From a virus: a DNA stretch of 5,603 nt. Below the pieces are notes generated by a model, which saw nothing but the letters and a program-made list of their open reading frames with translations, did no database searches and was not told the origin of the DNA. Below are positions 1-5,603 of the stretch, piece by piece. The first letter of the stretch is position 1. Each line of letters starts with the position of its first letter. The stretch is taken from IMG/VR virus record IMGVR_UViG_3300045988_013077, positions 1 through 5,603 of that record. The stretch is one strand, 5' to 3'. A program made the translations under genes and the position numbers.

Positions 1-55
1 AACCCGGCAACACTGAACACAGGAGATGAAAATATAGAATACGCATCAGGCGGAG
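1..55. repeat. Terminal redundancy, copy 1. Bases 1-55 are identical to 5549-5603, an overlap left by assembling a circular genome of unit length 5548 nt.
   Basis: Direct comparison: aacccggcaacactgaacacaggagatgaaaatatagaatacgcatcaggcggag occurs at both window ends. The reading frame of the capsid ORF is continuous across the join (5548 mod 3 = 1, so 5018 and 157+5548 are in the same frame). Confidence 0.95.
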
Positions 56-1149
56 GAAAAGAAGACGAAATCAGTGAAGAAACAATTCTAGCGGACGCAC
101 AAAATGGCGGATACTGTTTACCTGTAAGCCGCTTCCACGATTATTTCTCATCCTGTATGCCCTTCCCTCAACGTGGGCCGGAAGTGACAATTGCACTAAC
201 CGGAAATGCACCTGTAAAAATGTTCGATGACGTACAAATGACCGACCCATATTTCGGAAGCATCTACTTAGGAAACGAACTGGGCAAGTTTGAAGCAAGT
301 GCATCAGACCCAACAGAAGTAGGCGGCCAAAATGTAACCGGCCAAGGAATCCCATATAAATACATGGGTGCAGACCTCCAGAACGTCGAAGCAACAACCA
401 TCAACCAGTTAAGGCAGGCCTTTGCAGTACAACACTATTACGAAGCGCTGGCGCGTGGCGGCAGCAGATACCGTGAGCAGGTGCGAGCACTTTTTGGCGT
501 AAGCATCAGCGACAAAACTGTTCAGGTTCCGGAATACCTAGGCGGTGGACGGTATCACGTCAACATGAACCAAATCGTACAGACCAGCGGTCAGGAAACA
601 GACAGCGGAACACCTATTGGTGAAACGGGCGCAATGTCAGTAACGCCTATCAATGAAAGTTCCTTTACAAAGAGCTTTGAGGAGCACGGCTTTATAATTG
701 GTGTTATGTGTGTGCGTCACGACCACAGCTACCAACAGGGAATTGAACGATTCTGGAGCCGAAGAGACCGATTGGACTACTATTTCCCGCAGTTCGCAAA
801 TATCGGAGAACAGCCTGTCAAAAAGAAAGAAATCATGGTGACCGGCACAAGCACAGACGATGAAACATTTGGATATCAGGAAGCTTGGGCAGACTATCGC
901 ATGAAACCGAACCGTGTAAACGGCAAAATGCGAAGCAATGCAGAAGGAACGCTGGACTTCTGGCACTATGCGGACAACTACGAAACCGTGCCGACACTCA
1001 GTCAAGAGTGGATGAACGAAGGTAAAACAGAAATCGCACGGACACTCATCGTACAGGATGAGCCGCAATTTTTCGGGGCAATTCGAGTGATGAACAAAAC
1101 GACACGTTGCATGCCGCTGTATAGCGTGCCGGGTCTAGAGAAACTGTAA
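1..1149 (+). CDS. VP1: Major capsid protein VP1, C-terminal 382 codons. It is 5'-partial only because of where the circle was cut. The track ORF 157..1149 is the same frame truncated to its first internal ATG.
   Basis: The frame is open from base 1 (NPATLNTGDENIEYASGGGKEDE...RFHDYFSSCMPFPQRGPEV...). Conserved microvirus capsid blocks are present: HDYF.SC.P.PQ.G, TINQLRQAFAVQHYYEALARGGSRYREQVRALFGV and PEYLGGG. TAA stop at 1147-1149. Confidence 0.93.
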   Translation, partial: NPATLNTGDENIEYASGGGKEDEISEETILADAQNGGYCLPVSRFHDYFSSCMPFPQRGPEVTIALTGNAPVKMFDDVQMTDPYFGSIYLGNELGKFEASASDPTEVGGQNVTGQGIPYKYMGADLQNVEATTINQLRQAFAVQHYYEALARGGSRYREQVRALFGVSISDKTVQVPEYLGGGRYHVNMNQIVQTSGQETDSGTPIGETGAMSVTPINESSFTKSFEEHGFIIGVMCVRHDHSYQQGIERFWSRRDRLDYYFPQFANIGEQPVKKKEIMVTGTSTDDETFGYQEAWADYRMKPNRVNGKMRSNAEGTLDFWHYADNYETVPTLSQEWMNEGKTEIARTLIVQDEPQFFGAIRVMNKTTRCMPLYSVPGLEKL

Positions 1150-1160
1150 AGAAAGGAGGA

Positions 1161-1188
1161 AGCCGGGCAAAAACCCGGCTATTTTCAA
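1161..1188 (+). terminator. GC hairpin plus T-rich tail between VP1 and VP2, an intrinsic terminator/attenuator candidate. It lies between the VP2 Shine-Dalgarno and the VP2 start codon.
   Basis: agccggg (1161-1167) / caaaaa / cccggct (1174-1180) forms a perfect 7-bp stem, followed by attttcaa. AAGGAGG lies at 1153-1159 and the VP2 ATG at 1189. Confidence 0.5.
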
Positions 1189-2073
1189 ATGCCAATTCCA
1201 TGGGGAACAATTCTAAAAGGAGTAAATGTACTCGGCAATGTTGCATCAAGTATAGGAAGCATAACAAACGCCACAAAAAACATTGCAGGAAGCTTTGGAG
1301 GTTGGGGAAACGAAGGAACAGGCCAAAGCAGTGGAGGAAGTGTAAGCCAAGGCGGTGGAGCATCTGTAAGCGGAAGCCAAAGCGGAACAAATGATGAACA
1401 AATCGCAAAATATTTGCAGCAAGCATACGGATACCAAAGCGCAGAAGGCATAGCACAGCAAAAATACAACCAAAAAAGTATGCTTCAACAGATGGGATAC
1501 AACACAATGCAAGCCATCACACAAGGCATATACAACCACATCGAAAACACAGCCGCAATGAATTATAACAGCGCCGAAGCGCTAGCAAACAGAGAATTCC
1601 AAGAGCGGATGAGCAACACAGCATATCAAAGAACGGTTGAGGACATGAAAAAAGCAGGTCTAAACCCAATTCTTGCATTTGCAAACGGCGGAGCGAGCAC
1701 ACCGGGAGGATCAGCAGCAACAATCAGCGGAGCAAGTATGGGACTAGCAAGTAGCAGCGCACTAGGAGTCAGCAGAAGCGGCGGATTTGTTCCAAACTCA
1801 TACAGCAGCACGAGCTGGAGTAAATCAGATTGGTATAACGCATCACAAAGCTGGAACCAGATGCTAAGTGAAACACATCTAAGTCCTTACGGCTTGCAGA
1901 AAGCACTAACAAATATCGGAAACAAAACAGACGAGACAATCGAAAATGTGACTGATAAAATGGGGAAAAAAGCAGCCGATAGTGACAAAAGAGGAAACAA
2001 ACCAAACAACCCAATGCAAGACAAAACAGGAGCATATGGACAAAAGAGAAAAGCGGGTGATTACCTAAAATGA
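1189..2073 (+). CDS. VP2: Minor capsid / DNA pilot protein (Microviridae VP2, gpH analogue), 294 aa.
   Basis: It sits directly downstream of VP1. The N-terminus is rich in Gly/Ser and small residues, followed by the block [24 protein letters not shown], which I recognise as the conserved VP2 signature of gokushovirus-like phages. No alternative in-frame start exists between the upstream TAA (1147) and 1189. Confidence 0.85.
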
Positions 2074-3089
2074 GTTGTTACAAGCCGTTAATACGACTGT
2101 ACAACCCGAATGATAGAGAACAGAGCGGGCGAGTATATTCACTCGCCCGCTTTTCTCAGTTATGCGGGAAACAGATGAAATACGAAGATTTAATGTATAA
2201 TCCAAAAGTCATGCTAATTCCATGCGGACAATGTATAGGATGCAGAATCAGACAAAGAGAGGACTGGACAACGCGCATAGAGCTGGAAGCACGAGACTAT
2301 CCGAAAGAAGAAGTATGGTTTATAACACTAACATATGATGACGAACATGTGCCGGGCATGATAGTAAAAACAGGTGAAATCATGCGAAAAGTACAATACA
2401 CGTGGAAACCGGGAGAGAAGCGCCCTAGCAGTGTTCAAATTTTACTGTATGAGGATATTCAAAAGTTTCTAAAACGCCTCAGGAAGGCTTACAGGGGCAA
2501 ATTACGCTATTTTGTAGCGGGTGAGTACGGAGAACAGACAGCGAGACCACATTATCACATGATTCTATACGGCTGGAAACCAACAGACCTAGAAAACCTA
2601 TACAAGATTCACCACAACGGATACTATACCAGTGAATGGCTAAAAGGTCTGTGGAGAATGGGTCAAATACAGATAGCACAAGCAGTTCCAGAAACCTATA
2701 GATATGTTGCAGGATACGTTACAAAAAAAATGTACGAAATAGACGGTAAAAAAGCTAATGCGTACTACAAGCTAGGGCAAACAAAACCATTCGCATGCAT
2801 GAGCTTAAAGCCGGGTCTAGGAGATCACTACTATCAAGAACACAAGGCAGAAATCTGGCGACAAGGCTACATTCAGTGTACCAACGGAAAAAGAGCACAA
2901 ATACCGAGATACTATGAAAAACAAATGGAAGCAGAAAACCCACAAAGATTGTGGAGAATTAAACAGAACCGACAAAAAAACGCAATGCAGCAGAAGAGAC
3001 TACAGGTAGAGAATCAAGATTATAAAACCGTCTTAGAGACCAAAGAGCGTGTCACGAAAAAACAAACGAAAAAGAGTGGTATTTTGTAA
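2070..3089 (+). CDS. VP4: Rolling-circle replication initiator (HUH endonuclease; Microviridae VP4 / gpA-like), 339 aa.
   Basis: The start overlaps the VP2 stop as ATGA (2070-2073). RCR motif 1 is FITLTYD (aa 84-90). The HUH motif is PHYHMILYG (H161/H163, nt 2550-2558). The Tyr motif is [11 protein letters not shown] (Y212/Y216). The Cys-rich N-terminus ([13 protein letters not shown]) is typical of microvirus Rep. Confidence 0.93.
2124..2156 (+). promoter_or_regulatory. Perfect 11-bp GC-rich hairpin with loop ATATTC and a TTTTCT tail, inside codons 19-29 of the rep gene. It is an attenuator or ori stem-loop candidate.
   Basis: agcgggcgagt (2124-2134) / atattc / actcgcccgct (2141-2151), then tttct. 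Checked base by base. Confidence 0.5.
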
Positions 3090-3102
3090 TCGGTGTCACC
3101 TA

Positions 3103-3140
3103 GCCCAGTACCTATCAAGTAAGGTACTGGGCATTATTAT
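3103..3140 (+). terminator. Hairpin 14 nt after the VP4 stop, a candidate terminator of the VP1-VP2-VP4 transcription unit. The U-tract is weak and interrupted.
   Basis: gcccagtacct (3103-3113) / atcaagta / aggtactgggc (3122-3132) forms a perfect 11-bp stem, followed by attattat. Confidence 0.55.
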
Positions 3141-3146
3141 TCTAAT

Positions 3147-3197
3147 CGCGCACACACGTGCACGCGAAAAGCCACACGCGCACGCGTGCGCACGTAT
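3147..3197. repeat. Two strictly alternating pyrimidine-purine (CG/CA/TG) tracts of 20 and 25 nt separated by AAAAGC. They contain nested palindromes.
   Basis: cgcgcacacacgtgcacgcg (3147-3166) and cacacgcgcacgcgtgcgcacgtat (3173-3197) alternate Y-R without a break. The palindromes are CGTGCACG (3157-3164), CACGTG (3155-3160) and GCGCACGCGTGCGC (3178-3191, 14 bp perfect). Confidence 0.85.
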
Positions 3198-3214
3198 TAT
3201 AATATAACTTGTTG

Positions 3215-3229
3215 TAGTAGTAGTAGTAG
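3215..3229. repeat. (TAG)5 trinucleotide microsatellite, preceded by (TTG)2.
   Basis: cttgttg tag tag tag tag tag gg, read directly. Confidence 0.95.
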
Positions 3230-3266
3230 GGTATGTGGAAAAGTTGAAAACTATAATTTTAAAACG

Positions 3267-3280
3267 TTATCACGTGATAA
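3267..3280. promoter_or_regulatory. Perfect 14-bp palindrome TTATCACGTGATAA, a candidate binding site (operator) for a dimeric protein.
   Basis: Its reverse complement equals itself. It lies between the solitary iteron copy and cluster A. Confidence 0.45.
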
Positions 3281-3344
3281 ATAAGAAAAATTCCTTGTTG
3301 AAAACTTTGTTGAAAACTTGTTGAATTGTTGAAACACTCTATTG

Positions 3345-3359
3345 TGTTAAAGTTTAACA
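3345..3359. promoter_or_regulatory. 15-bp palindrome TGTTAAA-G-TTTAACA centred between the two iteron clusters.
   Basis: 7+1+7 perfect dyad symmetry, checked base by base. Confidence 0.45.
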
Positions 3360-3436
3360 ATGTTGAAATGTTGAAAACTATGTTGAAAATGTTGAAAACC
3401 CAATAGAAGCAATCCGGAATCGGACGGGAAAGTCAC

Positions 3437-3483
3437 GGCCGCGCTTCGCTGGAAGTTGCGCCGCGTAGCGCGCAACAGCGGCC
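3437..3483 (+). other. Nested GC-rich stem-loop: a 6-bp outer stem enclosing a 7-bp inner hairpin. It is a structured ssDNA/RNA element immediately upstream of the promoter -35.
   Basis: ggccgc (3437-3442) pairs with gcggcc (3478-3483). gttgcgc (3455-3461) pairs with gcgcaac (3470-3476) around the loop cgcgtagc. By eye the local GC content is far above the rest of the genome. Confidence 0.5.
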
Positions 3484-3488
3484 ATTTG

Positions 3489-3517
3489 TTGACAACTCCG
3501 GGTTTTTATGTTATAGT
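3489..3517 (+). promoter_or_regulatory. Near-consensus sigma70/sigmaA-type promoter driving the peptidase gene.
   Basis: -35 TTGACA (3489-3494), an exact 17-nt spacer, and an extended -10 TGtTATAGT (TG at 3509-3510, TATAGT at 3512-3517). It lies 44 nt upstream of the ATG at 3562. Confidence 0.75.
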
Positions 3518-3528
3518 AAAAAAAAAAA
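3518..3528. repeat. A11 homopolymer directly abutting the -10 hexamer, covering the expected transcription start.
   Basis: Eleven consecutive A residues, counted from 3518 to 3528. Confidence 0.95.
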
Positions 3529-3561
3529 TCGCCTCGCTTCGCGCGGCAGAAAGGGGACCAC

Positions 3562-3945
3562 ATGAAGCACGTGAACTATGTAAAAGCAGACTTCGGAAAA
3601 GTAAGCGAGCACTTCAAAGCAAAGGAATTTCAGTGCAAAGACAAAACCGATGGAATACTGATCGCAACCGAACTGCTTGACACACTGGAAAAAATCAGAA
3701 ACCATTTCAACGCACCAGTCATCATAAACAGCGGATACAGAACACCAAGCTGGAACAGCAAAGTAAACGGAGCATCAAATTCATACCACTGCAAAGGAAT
3801 GGCCGCCGATATCGTAGTGAAAGGGCACAGCAGCAGAGAAGTCGCAAAATACACAGACAGTATCATGGAACAGGGCGGAGTAATCAGATACACAAATTTT
3901 ACGCACGTGGATGTGCGTGAAGAACGATACAGAAAGGGGGTGTAA
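3562..3945 (+). CDS. Zn-dependent peptidoglycan peptidase, Peptidase M15 (M15A / Peptidase_M15_3, VanY / L-alanyl-D-glutamate peptidase-like) single-domain endolysin candidate, 127 aa.
   Basis: SD AAGGGG (3551-3556) lies 5 nt before the ATG. The motifs in the family order are F.A.EF.C (aa 18-25), SGYR (57-60), NSYH-x6-D (H76...D83: SYHCKGMAAD) and FTHVD (H115, D117). This gives the H/D/H zinc triad spacing typical of this fold. There is no N-terminal hydrophobic segment. Confidence 0.85.
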   Translation: MKHVNYVKADFGKVSEHFKAKEFQCKDKTDGILIATELLDTLEKIRNHFNAPVIINSGYRTPSWNSKVNGASNSYHCKGMAADIVVKGHSSREVAKYTDSIMEQGGVIRYTNFTHVDVREERYRKGV

Positions 3946-3948
3946 CCA

Positions 3949-4053
3949 ATGGCACTAATCAAGGTGAAAGACCTGCGGGAAGCAATCCAGCTAATCAAAA
4001 CCGTGTTGGAAAAGCTCGACCAGATTTACCACATCCTGAAGGAAAAGGAGTAA
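3949..4053 (+). CDS. Small hypothetical protein, 34 aa, a predicted amphipathic helix. Below the ORF-track size cut-off.
   Basis: ATG at 3949 is preceded by AAGGGGG (3934-3940) with an 8-nt spacer. Translation: MALIKVKDLREAIQLIKTVLEKLDQIYHILKEKE. It fills the gap between neighbouring genes exactly. I recognise no homology. Confidence 0.4.
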   Translation: MALIKVKDLREAIQLIKTVLEKLDQIYHILKEKE

Positions 4054-4057
4054 AACA

Positions 4058-4279
4058 ATGTTACACAAGACATGGAACGTAAGAGACCAGACCGAAAAAG
4101 ATTTAAGGCTTGAAGCGGATAAATTATACCGCGAAATCGAAACCGGATACAAGTTGATAAAGAAAATTTCAGACAAAGAAGAAGCTCATAAAATCATTGA
4201 CAAAATATGGATAATGAAATCATGGGCCAACGATATACAGCTAGAACTAATCCGAAGGGAGTACAGCAATGAAGCATAG
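4058..4279 (+). CDS. Hypothetical protein, 73 aa, highly charged and helical, with no recognisable family.
   Basis: AAGGAG (4045-4050) lies 7 nt before the ATG. It is tightly packed with its neighbours and overlaps the next gene by 11 nt. Confidence 0.55.
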   Translation: MLHKTWNVRDQTEKDLRLEADKLYREIETGYKLIKKISDKEEAHKIIDKIWIMKSWANDIQLELIRREYSNEA

Positions 4280-4388
4280 AAAGAAAATGCCGATGAAAAC
4301 CGACAAGCGCATGTTCAACGTAACGGCACGAAAAACGAAGAGTATCAACCTGAGCCAGAAACCCATGCGGGGCGGCATCCGACTGTAA
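4269..4388 (+). CDS. Small basic DNA-binding/packaging protein (phiX174 J analogue; gokushovirus ORF8-like), 39 aa. Below the ORF-track size cut-off.
   Basis: GGGAG (4257-4261) lies 7 nt before the ATG. Translation: MKHRKKMPMKTDKRMFNVTARKTKSINLSQKPMRGGIRL. 12 of 39 residues are K or R. The K/R-rich N-terminus, the ...RMF..TA.KT... core and the C-terminal PMRGGIRL match the pattern I recall for these proteins. Confidence 0.7.
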   Translation: MKHRKKMPMKTDKRMFNVTARKTKSINLSQKPMRGGIRL

Positions 4389-4400
4389 AGGAGAAAAAAC

Positions 4401-4643
4401 ATGATTCACAATTACTACGGCATCTACGACAGCGTAGCAAAGAGCTACTGCTACATTGGTGAAAGCAAGAGCAACGAAACCTTCGCACGAATGTGCGAAA
4501 TTATGGCAAAAGACGATAAAACGTTCCTTGGACAGAGTCCCGAAGACTACAAAGGGTACCACATCGCAAACTTCGACGATGAAACCGGCACATTTAAGAG
4601 CATCGAGCCGGATAAGGTATGGGAGGGCAAACCGCATGATTAA
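4401..4643 (+). CDS. VP5: Conserved microvirus non-structural protein, VP5/ORF5-like (proposed gpC analogue), 80 aa.
   Basis: AAGGAG (4388-4393) lies 7 nt before the ATG. The pattern YGIYDSVAKSY...ARM...PEDYKGYHIANFDDETGTF resembles the remembered IYDSKA..Y...PEDY.L..IG.FDD.TG.F signature of gokushovirus VP5. The position immediately upstream of VP3 matches gokushovirus synteny. Confidence 0.6.
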   Translation: MIHNYYGIYDSVAKSYCYIGESKSNETFARMCEIMAKDDKTFLGQSPEDYKGYHIANFDDETGTFKSIEPDKVWEGKPHD

Positions 4644-5031
4644 ACGATACGAGGAAGGGCGCAAGCCCTTCTTTTCAAATCCAGGCGAAAAACTGCGAAA
4701 GCAATACGTCTGGAGCAAAGACGAAAAAGGCAACAAAAAACTAATCGAGACTGAACCGATTGACATTCAGGCAGAAATCGAAAGCTATGCAGACGAATGC
4801 GACATTAAAAACATCGTCCGCAAAGCAAGTTTCGACCCACAGTTTGCCAAAAGTCTGGCAGACAGCGCAAAAACAGACGAAATTATGGACATCACGGAAT
4901 GGCCTACGAACATTCACGAGTATCACGCCATGATGGCAACAGCACAGACCAAGGCAATGGAACTGCAGCAGATGCAAGAAAAGGCCGCAAACGATACAAA
5001 GAAGAAAGAGGAAGGCAATGAACCGGAATAA
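4636..5031 (+). CDS. VP3: Internal scaffolding protein (gokushovirus VP3-like), 131 aa. The start is reassigned from the track's TTG at 4456 to the ATG at 4636.
   Basis: GGGAGGG (4621-4627) lies 8 nt before ATG 4636, which overlaps the upstream stop (ATGATTAA). DIQAEIESYADECDIKNIVRKASFDP resembles the conserved VP3 core, and the tail is acidic/Lys-rich. It ends 14 nt inside VP1, the usual VP3-VP1 arrangement. Confidence 0.78.
   Translation: MIKRYEEGRKPFFSNPGEKLRKQYVWSKDEKGNKKLIETEPIDIQAEIESYADECDIKNIVRKASFDPQFAKSLADSAKTDEIMDITEWPTNIHEYHAMMATAQTKAMELQQMQEKAANDTKKKEEGNEPE
4654..4680 (+). terminator. Intragenic GC hairpin with a GCAA (GNRA) tetraloop and a TTTTCAAAT tail, in codons 7-15 of VP3. 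An attenuator candidate.
   Basis: gaagggc (4654-4660) / gcaa / gcccttc (4665-4671), then ttttcaaat. The same 9-mer tail follows the 1161 hairpin. Confidence 0.4.
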
Positions 5032-5603
5032 TGAAAGACACTTTAACAGTGTACCACAGACACATGTAAGTCGAACACGATTCAAACGAGACCAGAACAT
5101 TCTCACGACTTTTAACGCAGGCAAACTGATTCCGTTTTACGTTGATGAAGTTTTACCAGGCGACACATTCAGCGTGGATACAGCGGCAATTATCCGAATG
5201 ACAACACCGAAATATCCAGTAATGGACGATGCTTACATCGATTTCTATTACTTCTTCTGTCCAAACCGGATTTTGTGGGACAATTTCAAACGGTTCATGG
5301 GTGAAGCAGACGATGCACCGTGGATGCCGACAAAAACGTACACAGTACCACAAATCATAATCGGAAACAAAAGTGTATGGCCTAAACCGGACAGAGCATA
5401 CCCAGACGAAAACTCAATTTTGGACTATATGGGAATCCCAGCAAAAAGCATCAAAACAAACACAGAAGCAGAATACAGTATCAATGCACTACCAATCAGA
5501 GCTTATGTGAAAATCTGGAACGAATTTTTTAGAGATCAAAACGTAGGAAACCCGGCAACACTGAACACAGGAGATGAAAATATAGAATACGCATCAGGCG
5601 GAG
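5018..5603 (+). CDS. VP1: Major capsid protein (Microviridae VP1 / F-type jelly-roll), N-terminal part. It is open at the window end and continues at base 56 (equivalently base 1 after removing the duplicate 55 nt). The full protein is 559 aa.
   Basis: ATG at 5018 follows GAGG (5008-5011) with a 6-nt spacer. My hand translation has no stop to the window end: MNRNNERHFNSVPQTHVSRTRFKRDQNILTTFNAGKLIPFYVDEVLPGDTFSVD...DFYYFFCPNRILWDNFKRF...LPIRAYVKIWNEFFRDQNV. The G.LIP...EVLPGD, FF.PNR..W.N and RAY..IWNE.FRDQN blocks are hallmark microvirus capsid motifs. The ORF is absent from the supplied track because it has no stop inside the window. Confidence 0.9.
   Translation, partial: MNRNNERHFNSVPQTHVSRTRFKRDQNILTTFNAGKLIPFYVDEVLPGDTFSVDTAAIIRMTTPKYPVMDDAYIDFYYFFCPNRILWDNFKRFMGEADDAPWMPTKTYTVPQIIIGNKSVWPKPDRAYPDENSILDYMGIPAKSIKTNTEAEYSINALPIRAYVKIWNEFFRDQNVGNPATLNTGDENIEYASGG
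5549..5603. repeat. Terminal redundancy, copy 2 (identical to 1-55).
   Basis: Same 55-mer as at the window start. Confidence 0.95.

Follow-up and report, generated by a model that had tools for sequence, protein, structure and literature searches.

A conserved noncoding module of ~205 nt at positions 3195–3399 of a gokushovirus genome, analyzed here as a 5,603-nt stretch of DNA (positions 1 to 5,603 of IMG/VR record IMGVR_UViG_3300045988_013077; hereafter the window), is best read as a compact mimic of a bacterial chromosomal replication origin (oriC). The direct repeats of the module are probably DnaA boxes of host type, and together with the sequences beside them they would make up the equivalent of a host oriC basal unwinding system (BUS) joined to a box cluster, at which host DnaA opens the double-stranded replicative form of the phage. 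We put the probability of this reading at roughly 0.72. The window is a complete circular genome, in which a 55-nt exact direct repeat at the termini (1–55 and 5549–5603), a signature of circular assembly, sets the true unit length at 5548 nt, and the module lies outside coding sequence, between the gene for the replication protein VP4 and a peptidase gene. It comprises an AT-rich tract, (TAG)5, a GGTA spacer, TGTGGAAAA, GTTGAAAAC and eight further TGTTGAAA boxes.

Read from left to right, the module opens with the AT-rich end TATTATAATATAACTTGTTG (3195–3214, plus strand), a candidate DNA unwinding element that contains the invariant ACTTGTTG(TAG). The (TAG)5 run that follows (3215–3229, plus strand) corresponds to DnaA-trios, 3'-GAT-5' being read here as 5'-TAG-3', and its complement, CTACTAC..., matches the TnnT-repeat element that DnaD recognizes. 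The 4-nt spacer GGTA (3230–3233, plus strand) stands in place of the 'GC cluster' between the trios and the proximal box. The trio-proximal DnaA box, TTTTCCACA on the minus strand (3234–3242; TGTGGAAAA on the plus strand), fits the relaxed DnaA-box consensus TTWTNCACA (PMC7561715), and a second, host-type box abuts it on the same strand (3242–3251; (A)GTTGAAAAC, reverse complement GTTTTCAAC(T)). An A/T-rich spacer (3252–3295) with the palindrome TTATCACGTGATAA (3267–3280), differing in sequence among lineages, separates this pair from cluster A, which consists of four co-oriented host-type boxes on the minus strand (TGTTGAAAA twice, TGTTGAATT and TGTTGAAAC; 3296–3335) whose positions are kept in relatives. 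Beyond the palindrome TGTTAAAGTTTAACA (3345–3359), readable as two convergent degenerate boxes, the four co-oriented minus-strand boxes of cluster B (3361–3399), the last three at 12+9 spacing, form the right end of the conserved, invertible module, and DNA similarity to relatives ends sharply at ~3399. On the minus strand, the left part of the module from 3251 to 3195 thus reads GTTTTCAAC, TTTTCCACA, TACC, CTA five times and C AACAAGTTATATTATAATA. Folded as a single strand, the module is no more stable than shuffles of it (z = +0.10), as expected of a protein-binding array in duplex DNA.

Ten same-strand copies of GT[T/G]GAA lie at 3235–3396, with none elsewhere on the plus strand of the window. 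For the core GTTGAA alone, the plus strand has nine occurrences, all inside 3243–3396, and the minus strand three, all outside this interval. An earlier interpretation, made by a model from the letters of the window (the sequence-only reading), had described nine repeats at 3243–3399, five exact and four near-exact, in two helically phased clusters flanking a 15-bp palindrome. The array is real, the exact copies of GTTGAAAAC standing at 3243, 3297, 3309, 3370 and 3391 on the plus strand, and both the single orientation and the cluster starts agree with that description (counted as TGTTGAA, 3296/3308/3319/3327 and 3361/3369/3381/3390). The near copies at 3328, 3362 and 3382 differ from the 9-mer at one to two positions; GTTGAATTG at 3320, however, has only the GTTGAA core in common with it, and a tenth copy, TGTGGAAAA at 3234–3242, where relatives have TGTGGAAAA or TGTTGAAAA, had been missed. 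The extent first given to the feature was too narrow, the conserved unit adding the AT-rich tract and (TAG)5 on the left, and the palindrome is present where described but only in the closest relatives of the window, other lineages having a different palindrome (CGTCAAAATGACG) in its place. Both clusters were recovered by Tandem Repeats Finder and by a repeat finder. Despite irregular successive spacings of 8, 54, 12, 11, 8, 34, 8, 12 and 9, the ten starts fall within ~2 bp of one 10.5-bp helical phase (R = 0.78 in the window, median R = 0.76 in 70 relatives), confirming the proposed phasing.

The published rule for a BUS asks for a DnaA box with no more than two mismatches, a tandem box with no more than four, a spacer that does not exceed 16 nt and is GC-rich over ~4 bp, and three or more trios (PMC8287927); a trio is defined as NAN with the consensus 3'-GAT-5', and an AT-rich element beyond the trios completes the oriC system (PMC8287927, PMC6669920). 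In the phage module the proximal box TTTTCCACA has one mismatch to TTATCCACA, and the co-oriented box abutting it (TTTTCAACT, the reverse complement of 3242–3250) has three. The spacer, GGTA, is 4 nt long and partially G-rich (GGGC or GGAG in relatives), five TAG trios are present at 3215–3229, and the AT-rich tract at 3195–3214 is 85% A+T; across modules, the median A+T fraction over the 25 nt beyond the trios is 0.72. The strand relation of trios to boxes is identical to that in the dnaA–dnaN origins of five bacterial loci (L270, L275, L285, L323 and L351). Where a chromosomal oriC would flank dnaA on a bacterial chromosome, this element sits in a 5548-nt phage genome. When the rule was applied in a strict form, requiring at least three TAGs, a spacer of at most 6 nt and a box with at most two mismatches to TGTGGATAA, 109 of 165 distinct phage modules passed, each with a 4-nt spacer, as compared with nine of 20,000 shuffled windows that gave any match; most of the failures that were inspected have TGTTGAAAT, a box of host type, next to the spacer. 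The trio sequence of Clostridioides difficile oriC, 5'-CACCTACTACTATTACTACTATGA-3', contains CACCTACTACTA (PMC7561715), and this same 12-mer is present in the gokushovirus relative L034. In Bacillus subtilis, the strand complementary to the trios, 5'-CTACTATTACTTCTACTA-3', is the DnaD recognition element (PMC10201434).

The motif and its layout recur in bacterial origins. Scanning bacterial genomes, one for each species, for three tandem copies of TGTTGAAA returned at least 120 loci. Among the loci listed, 38 are named Oscillospiraceae, Ruminococcaceae, Ruminococcus or Acutalibacteraceae and ten more belong to other Clostridia; nine (L270, L275, L285, L298, L300, L312, L323, L351 and L367) have arrays, of up to at least 20 boxes, beside dnaA and usually between dnaA and dnaN. 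In four of the dnaA-adjacent loci, Pfam matches confirmed DnaA (PF00308, PF08299) and the beta clamp (DnaN), L275 having been submitted for DnaA only. Viewed from the dnaN side, the origin ends read AT-rich-(TAG)4-5-GGGG/GGGC/GGTA-TGT[TG]GAAAC-TGT[TG]GAAAAC, followed by many boxes, which is the plan of the phage module; L275, for example, reads TAGTAGTAGTAGTAGGGTATGTTGAAACTGTGGAAAAG, and L367 carries the TAGTAGTCGTAGTAG variant that is also found in phage relatives. In position-weight matrices, the ratio of T to G at box position 4 is 88/12 over 660 phage boxes versus 84/16 over 133 host boxes, and the flanking positions agree. No microvirus proteins are encoded in the bacterial loci, which are therefore not prophages. 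The predicted origins of Ruminococcus/Oscillospiraceae metagenome-assembled genomes (L270, L275, L285, L323, L351 and L367) match the phage module in box variant, T/G ratio, (TAG)n-GGGG/GGTA-box-box junction and the 8–12-bp spacing of co-oriented boxes, but differ from it in their length of 0.5–1.5 kb and their 15–30 boxes in both orientations. Together, these comparisons point to TTTTCAACA as the predominant DnaA-box variant of Oscillospiraceae and Ruminococcus origins; a literature search for Ruminococcus DnaA boxes found no description of them.

At some non-origin sites in Oscillospiraceae genomes, a three-box unit of the form TGTTGAAAAC-NN-TGTTGAAA-N-TGTTGAAAAC was also observed, with the 12+9 spacing of window positions 3369–3399 (L294 6318–6346, L334 3796–3825, L338 3779–3807, and also L303, L320, L324 and L337). 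In several cases, such as L294, L334 and L338, it stands upstream of a conserved membrane permease gene, and it may be a DnaA regulon site.

Relatives of the window were collected from IMG/VR by way of VP4 and from GenBank by way of the noncoding DNA; one contig, L069, was left out as an 8.8-kb, chimeric-looking sequence without the module. The search of related genomes for the motif, which the sequence-only reading had suggested as a check, revealed a homologous module in at least 165 distinct gokushovirus contigs. Across these carriers, VP4 identity to that of the window ranges from 35 to 97% and VP1 identity falls to ~40%, while the motif is unchanged; the DNA of the module is conserved far better than the proteins. 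An alignment of 70 modules gives the plan as TATA(A/T)TAACTTGTTG, TAG-NNG-TAGTAGTAG, a 4-nt spacer and TGT[G/T]GAAAA-GTTGAAAA, then an A/T-rich spacer of variable sequence, a first set of four boxes, a palindrome that differs by lineage and a second set of four boxes, the last being GTTGAAAAC. Of the TAGs, the three nearest the boxes do not change among relatives and the fourth does (NNG). The AT-rich end is conserved as TATA(A/T)TAACTTGTTGTAG in all clades, and ACTTGTTGTAG (3207–3217), just outside the trios, is kept in all module-carrying gokushovirus clades and is exact in 108 of 158 distinct modules; ACTTGTTGTAG/ACTTGTTG is a phage-specific addition to the module.

The orientation of the module relative to its surroundings is not fixed. 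Five of 80 close relatives have the whole 3195–3399 unit exactly reversed (L021, L028, L034, L057 and L068, where it lies ~50–420 nt after VP4), and the same inversion is found throughout a clade with 35–40% VP4 identity (L167, L173, L183, L202, L206, L231, L236, L241, L253 and L260). In the inverted relatives, a conserved stem-loop that follows VP4 (3092–3135 in the window) and both GC-rich flanks of the module keep their positions, the breakpoints coinciding with the module ends, and the distance from the array to the stem-loop varies. The order within the module is constant whichever way it faces, and with all parts in fixed internal order the module would work as a cassette in either orientation. 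Inversion of the whole unit fits a self-contained cassette of duplex DNA and speaks against a role tied to a single strand. Short GCGC-rich inverted sequences that border the module could mediate the inversion.

Similar arrays extend beyond the gokushoviruses. Unrelated, larger phage contigs (16–77 kb) carry noncoding arrays of TGTTGAAA boxes: L221 (~1770–2000) reproduces the whole layout, from the AT-rich tract through TAGTAGTAG and GGGC to the boxes, and further arrays are present in L210 (~3490–3800), L224, L255 and L228/L234, while in L198 (2226–2254) the boxes lie inside the gene for a protein with a helix-turn-helix domain, a candidate replication protein, with the gene's own repeats and an AT-rich tract next to them. 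Phages of this host group may commonly mimic origins in this way. A distant microvirus, the 4005-nt contig L391 (VP1 46% and VP4 27% identical), carries TAGTAG-TAA-TGTGGATAA-TGTGGATAA plus TGTGGATAAC at ~40–150 on its plus strand (minus-strand offset 3853). As this plan is built of canonical boxes, the principle recurs with another box type, and the canonical-box version presumably serves a different host. Because the motif is constant over VP4 identities of 35–97%, in both orientations, and is also found in unrelated phages, it tracks the host and not the Rep protein.

If the module is an oriC mimic, its action can be sketched from known bacterial initiation. The incoming single-stranded DNA would be converted to the double-stranded replicative form, on which host ATP-DnaA would bind the phased boxes through its domain IV and oligomerize, starting at the box pair beside the trios and extending along their TAG strand, so that the adjacent AT-rich tract (3195–3214) would melt. 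The opened region would then recruit the Firmicute helicase-loading machinery, with DnaD on the CTA/TnnT strand followed by DnaB and DnaI–DnaC, and the replicative form could be replicated or maintained in a DnaA-dependent, oriC-like manner beside Rep-driven rolling-circle synthesis. The host suggested by this scheme is a gut member of the Oscillospiraceae/Ruminococcaceae, an assignment to which the −35/−10 promoter of the window, the strong Shine–Dalgarno sequences of relatives, the faecal sources and the box variant all point. A stronger version, in which the module is a functional, host-specific mini-oriC and the replicative form a minichromosome that depends on DnaA and keeps pace with the host cell cycle, is offered tentatively, as a possibility that we rate below even odds.

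Several observations weigh against the oriC-mimic reading. DnaA binding, unwinding and the use made of the opening are deduced from sequence, and the status of TTTTCAACA as a DnaA box of Oscillospiraceae is deduced from its position in the dnaA–dnaN region beside trios; moreover, TTTTCAACA breaks the TTWTNCACA consensus at C6, a position that is usually conserved. Host oriCs have an AT-rich tract next to the trios, but nothing in them corresponds to the invariant ACTTGTTG of the phage module. By blastn, the similarity between phage and host oriC amounts to motif-built stretches of 35 nt or less, which leaves mimicry or ancient capture; recent capture of host oriC DNA was considered and set aside, as matches of this length cannot demonstrate a recent transfer or homology by descent. 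To our knowledge, the known Microviridae (phiX174, G4) need no DnaA, and the use made of a DnaA-driven opening is accordingly a conjecture. A few non-Firmicute metagenome-assembled genomes (Mesoaciditoga, Anaerolineae) also have TGTTGAAA arrays and TAG runs, so that the host assignment is not exclusive. Finally, the boxes, though not the trios, would be accounted for equally well if the array served as a sink for DnaA or as a switch under its control.

The genes of the window all lie on the plus strand and form the Gokushovirinae set of VP1, VP2, VP4, VP3 and VP5, as identified by Pfam and PHROG matches: VP1 (559 aa, Phage_F) runs from 5018 across the junction to 1149, the VP2 pilot protein from 1189 to 2073 and the VP4 Rep from 2070 to 3089; a 472-nt noncoding region (3090–3561) precedes an M15 peptidase gene (3562–3945, probably encoding a lysis enzyme) and a small ORF after it, followed by VP5 (4401–4643) and the VP3 scaffold, which ends at 5031. 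The closest GenBank records are gut gokushoviruses of human, pig and monkey faeces. The promoter that the sequence-only reading had placed 90 nt downstream of the array is borne out as a consensus match: a strong, TG-extended sigma-70/sigma-A-type promoter on the plus strand (TTGACA-17-TATAGT, 3489–3517) that matches 11 of 12 consensus positions and would serve the M15 peptidase gene. The gene 3' of the module and promoter differs among close relatives, an M15 peptidase here being replaced by other small ORFs in L034, L021 and L068, which marks the region after the module as a variable accessory slot. An Rfam scan of the whole window gave two sub-threshold chance matches, neither of them within the array.

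Directly after the VP4 stop, and outside the DnaA module, lies the plus-strand stem-loop at 3092–3135, with the sequence GGTGTCACC-TA-GCCCAGTACCT-ATCAAGTA-AGGTACTGGGC, in which GGTGTCACC is the 5' box, 3103–3113/3122–3132 the stem and ATCAAGTA the loop. The stretch from the VP4 stop to the module is strongly structured (z = −4.77 versus shuffles). In relatives, the loop and 5' box are invariant and the stem shows compensatory changes (GCCCAG/CTGGGC to GCCAAG/CTTGGC, and GTACC to GTGCC). Copies ~90% identical to the stem-loop were seen in very distant microviruses associated with Ciona and Apis (L081 1363–1403 and L082 1503–1544), in both of which its orientation relative to the genes is opposite. 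The loop of its minus strand, TACTTGATA, has the 8-mer ACTTGATA in common with the phiX174 nick region. The stem-loop may be a Rep (rolling-circle) origin element, a terminator or both; its strand is puzzling. Between the stem-loop and the module, at 3147–3194, two GC-rich, perfectly alternating pyrimidine–purine tracts, CGCGCACACACGTGCACGCG and CACACGCGCACGCGTGCGCACGTAT, are split by AAAAGC and abut the AT-rich end (inverted repeats I1 and I9); they are candidates for Z-DNA- or cruciform-prone DNA, and GCGCAC-type tracts border the module in most relatives.

Two further observations concern the genomes as a whole. At four-fold degenerate sites of the coding strand (plus-strand ORFs of at least 150 aa in the window and ~160 relatives), A makes up ~0.51 and T ~0.12, an AT skew of ~+0.6 that is found in every clade and that is opposite in sign to that of the T-rich viral strand of phiX174; mutation bias in single-stranded DNA, the choice of the strand that is packaged and selection may each be its cause. 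Three contigs of ~10.7 kb (L152, of 10711 nt, L047 and L058) carry two different gokushovirus modules and stem-loops; each could be a heterodimeric or chimeric assembly, or a co-integrate formed from two related phages.

Of the alternatives, the one that fares best, though we consider it unlikely, is that the array binds host DnaA without starting replication. As a sink, the many copies of the replicative form, with ~10 boxes each, would titrate DnaA, in the manner of datA or the DnaA-box clusters of Bacillus, and thereby block or reprogram host initiation; as a switch, DnaA occupancy would tune the 3489–3517 promoter of the M15 peptidase (lysis) gene and couple lysis to the replication status of the host. 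The identity of the boxes is the same as for an oriC mimic, the array lies 90 nt upstream of a strong promoter, and the three-box units with 12+9 spacing at non-origin sites in Oscillospiraceae (upstream of the permease gene in L294, L334 and L338) indicate that host DnaA-type arrays also occur in apparently regulatory settings. Neither a sink nor a switch, however, needs trios, a fixed 4-nt spacer or an AT-rich end, yet these are the best-conserved parts of the module across clades. Inversion alters the end that faces the promoter, and still the module is kept; the gene after the promoter, moreover, differs among relatives.

Melting by DnaA could instead assist the phage's own nickase, the HUH endonuclease VP4, which would cut at ACTTG|TTG (3207–3214), so that a flip of the module would switch the strand that is displaced and packaged. 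HUH nucleases need a single-stranded substrate. Every phage clade keeps ACTTGTTGTAG, which host oriCs lack, and the AACTTG within ACTTGTTGTAG is shared with the phiX174 nick site, CAACTTG^ATA. Nevertheless, we regard such a DnaA-assisted Rep origin as improbable. The AT skew is 0.61 in genomes with the forward module as against 0.66 with the inverted one in the 80–88% VP4 clade, and 0.60 with the inverted module in the <42% clade; this equality of four-fold-site skew between orientations leaves the idea that module orientation sets the packaged strand unsupported. A 6-mer match in AT-rich DNA is weak, and the conserved stem-loop at 3092–3135 is a better candidate for the Rep site.

The sequence-only reading had itself favored iterons bound by Rep (VP4) on either side of a dyad element, as in CRESS-DNA viruses, gemini- and nanoviruses and plasmids. 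The more general part of this proposal holds, as the repeats are specific, conserved, phased, noncoding direct repeats of the protein-binding type found at replication origins. They lie just downstream of the rep gene, and rolling-circle replicons with Rep-binding direct repeats do exist. Their assignment to VP4, on the other hand, now appears very unlikely. Over 35–97% Rep identity the motif shows no co-variation with the protein, and motif and layout recur where no microvirus Rep is encoded, at bacterial origins and in unrelated phage contigs. The dyad differs between lineages, and both the orientation of the array and its distance to the conserved stem-loop vary. Rep-binding iterons of these viruses and of pMV158-type rolling-circle plasmids resemble the array in being short, noncoding direct repeats that a small replicon of this kind carries close to rep, but the array differs in showing no co-variation with Rep, in being common to bacterial chromosomes and in not being tied to a nick-site hairpin. 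The likeness of CTACTACGAC to the pMV158 nick sequence was also discarded, as its G/A positions are the variable ones in relatives.

The remaining possibilities, that the repeats bind another host factor, such as Spo0A at its 0A boxes (TGTCGAA), or form a structural, curved-DNA or UP-like element, are highly improbable: TGTTGAA is one base off TGTCGAA and phased A-tracts could bend DNA, but there is no C at the diagnostic position 4 in 517 phage and 145 host oriC boxes (T or G throughout, with one A), which excludes 0A boxes (core TGNCGAA), the adjacency of the boxes to trios in dnaA-flanking origins points to DnaA, and curvature alone leaves the conserved exact 8-mer unexplained. The related suggestion of a bent-DNA activator of the downstream promoter is unlikely for the reason that features useful only in unwinding (the trios, the 4-nt spacer and the AT-rich end) are kept while the module can be flipped relative to the promoter. 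Two other candidates were rejected. Partial resemblances to a XerCD dif site, as used for prophage integration by enterogokushoviruses (PMC7062461), were seen at 3186–3214 and in the palindrome but do not recur in relatives, and a structure in single-stranded DNA, whether a complementary-strand origin or a packaging signal, does not fit a module that folds like shuffled sequence and is inverted in whole clades.

Among known systems, the closest to the module proposed here as an oriC mimic is the bacterial BUS itself (B. subtilis incC, C. difficile oriC2), with the same parts in the same order and relative orientation. Unlike these, the phage module is housed in a 5.5-kb single-stranded DNA phage genome and not beside dnaA, spans ~205 bp, uses TTTTCAACA boxes and has the extra, phage-specific ACTTGTTG. 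Plasmid replicons that recruit the host initiator through DnaA boxes include P1 oriR, pSC101, F and the R6K 'A site' (ABC primosome), and DnaA boxes have reportedly been described, in a preprint, in the injection-stop region of phage T5. These replicons have one or a few boxes, accessory to an initiator of their own, and none is a microvirus; we know of no plasmid or phage DnaA-box replicon that carries a trio-containing unwinding module. Replication of the Microviridae is, in the textbook account, the work of the phage's own Rep nickase. The phiX174 origin, a 30-nt site inside gene A, has no counterpart of the repeat array, while VP4 here has no 30-nt phiX-like origin; the 8-mer ACTTGATA of the phiX174 nick region occurs here on the minus strand in the loop of 3092–3135 and not in the array. 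In full-text literature searches, no account turned up of iterons, DnaA boxes or DnaA-trios in Microviridae, or of trio-containing modules in phages, in line with the view of the sequence-only reading that an array of this type is undescribed for the family. Hence, whereas accessory DnaA boxes in plasmid and some phage replicons were already known, a complete oriC-type unwinding module in a single-stranded DNA phage appears to be new.

If the oriC-mimic reading is correct, a large group of gut gokushoviruses plugs into the chromosomal initiation system of its host, which would be a new route of replication or persistence for single-stranded DNA phages. The hosts of the gokushoviruses that abound in human and animal guts are largely unknown, and an origin mimic provides both a concrete host prediction and a general approach to making one: the box variant would serve as a host tag for uncultured microviruses, indicating Ruminococcus/Oscillospiraceae here and another host for L391. 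A module of ~205 bp that is self-contained and tolerates inversion would further lend itself to use as a minimal origin when genetic tools are built for anaerobes that are hard to manipulate. Should the module act as a mini-oriC in its own right, it would give 'lytic' single-stranded DNA phages a plasmid-like carrier state without integration, which could explain their long-term persistence in the gut.

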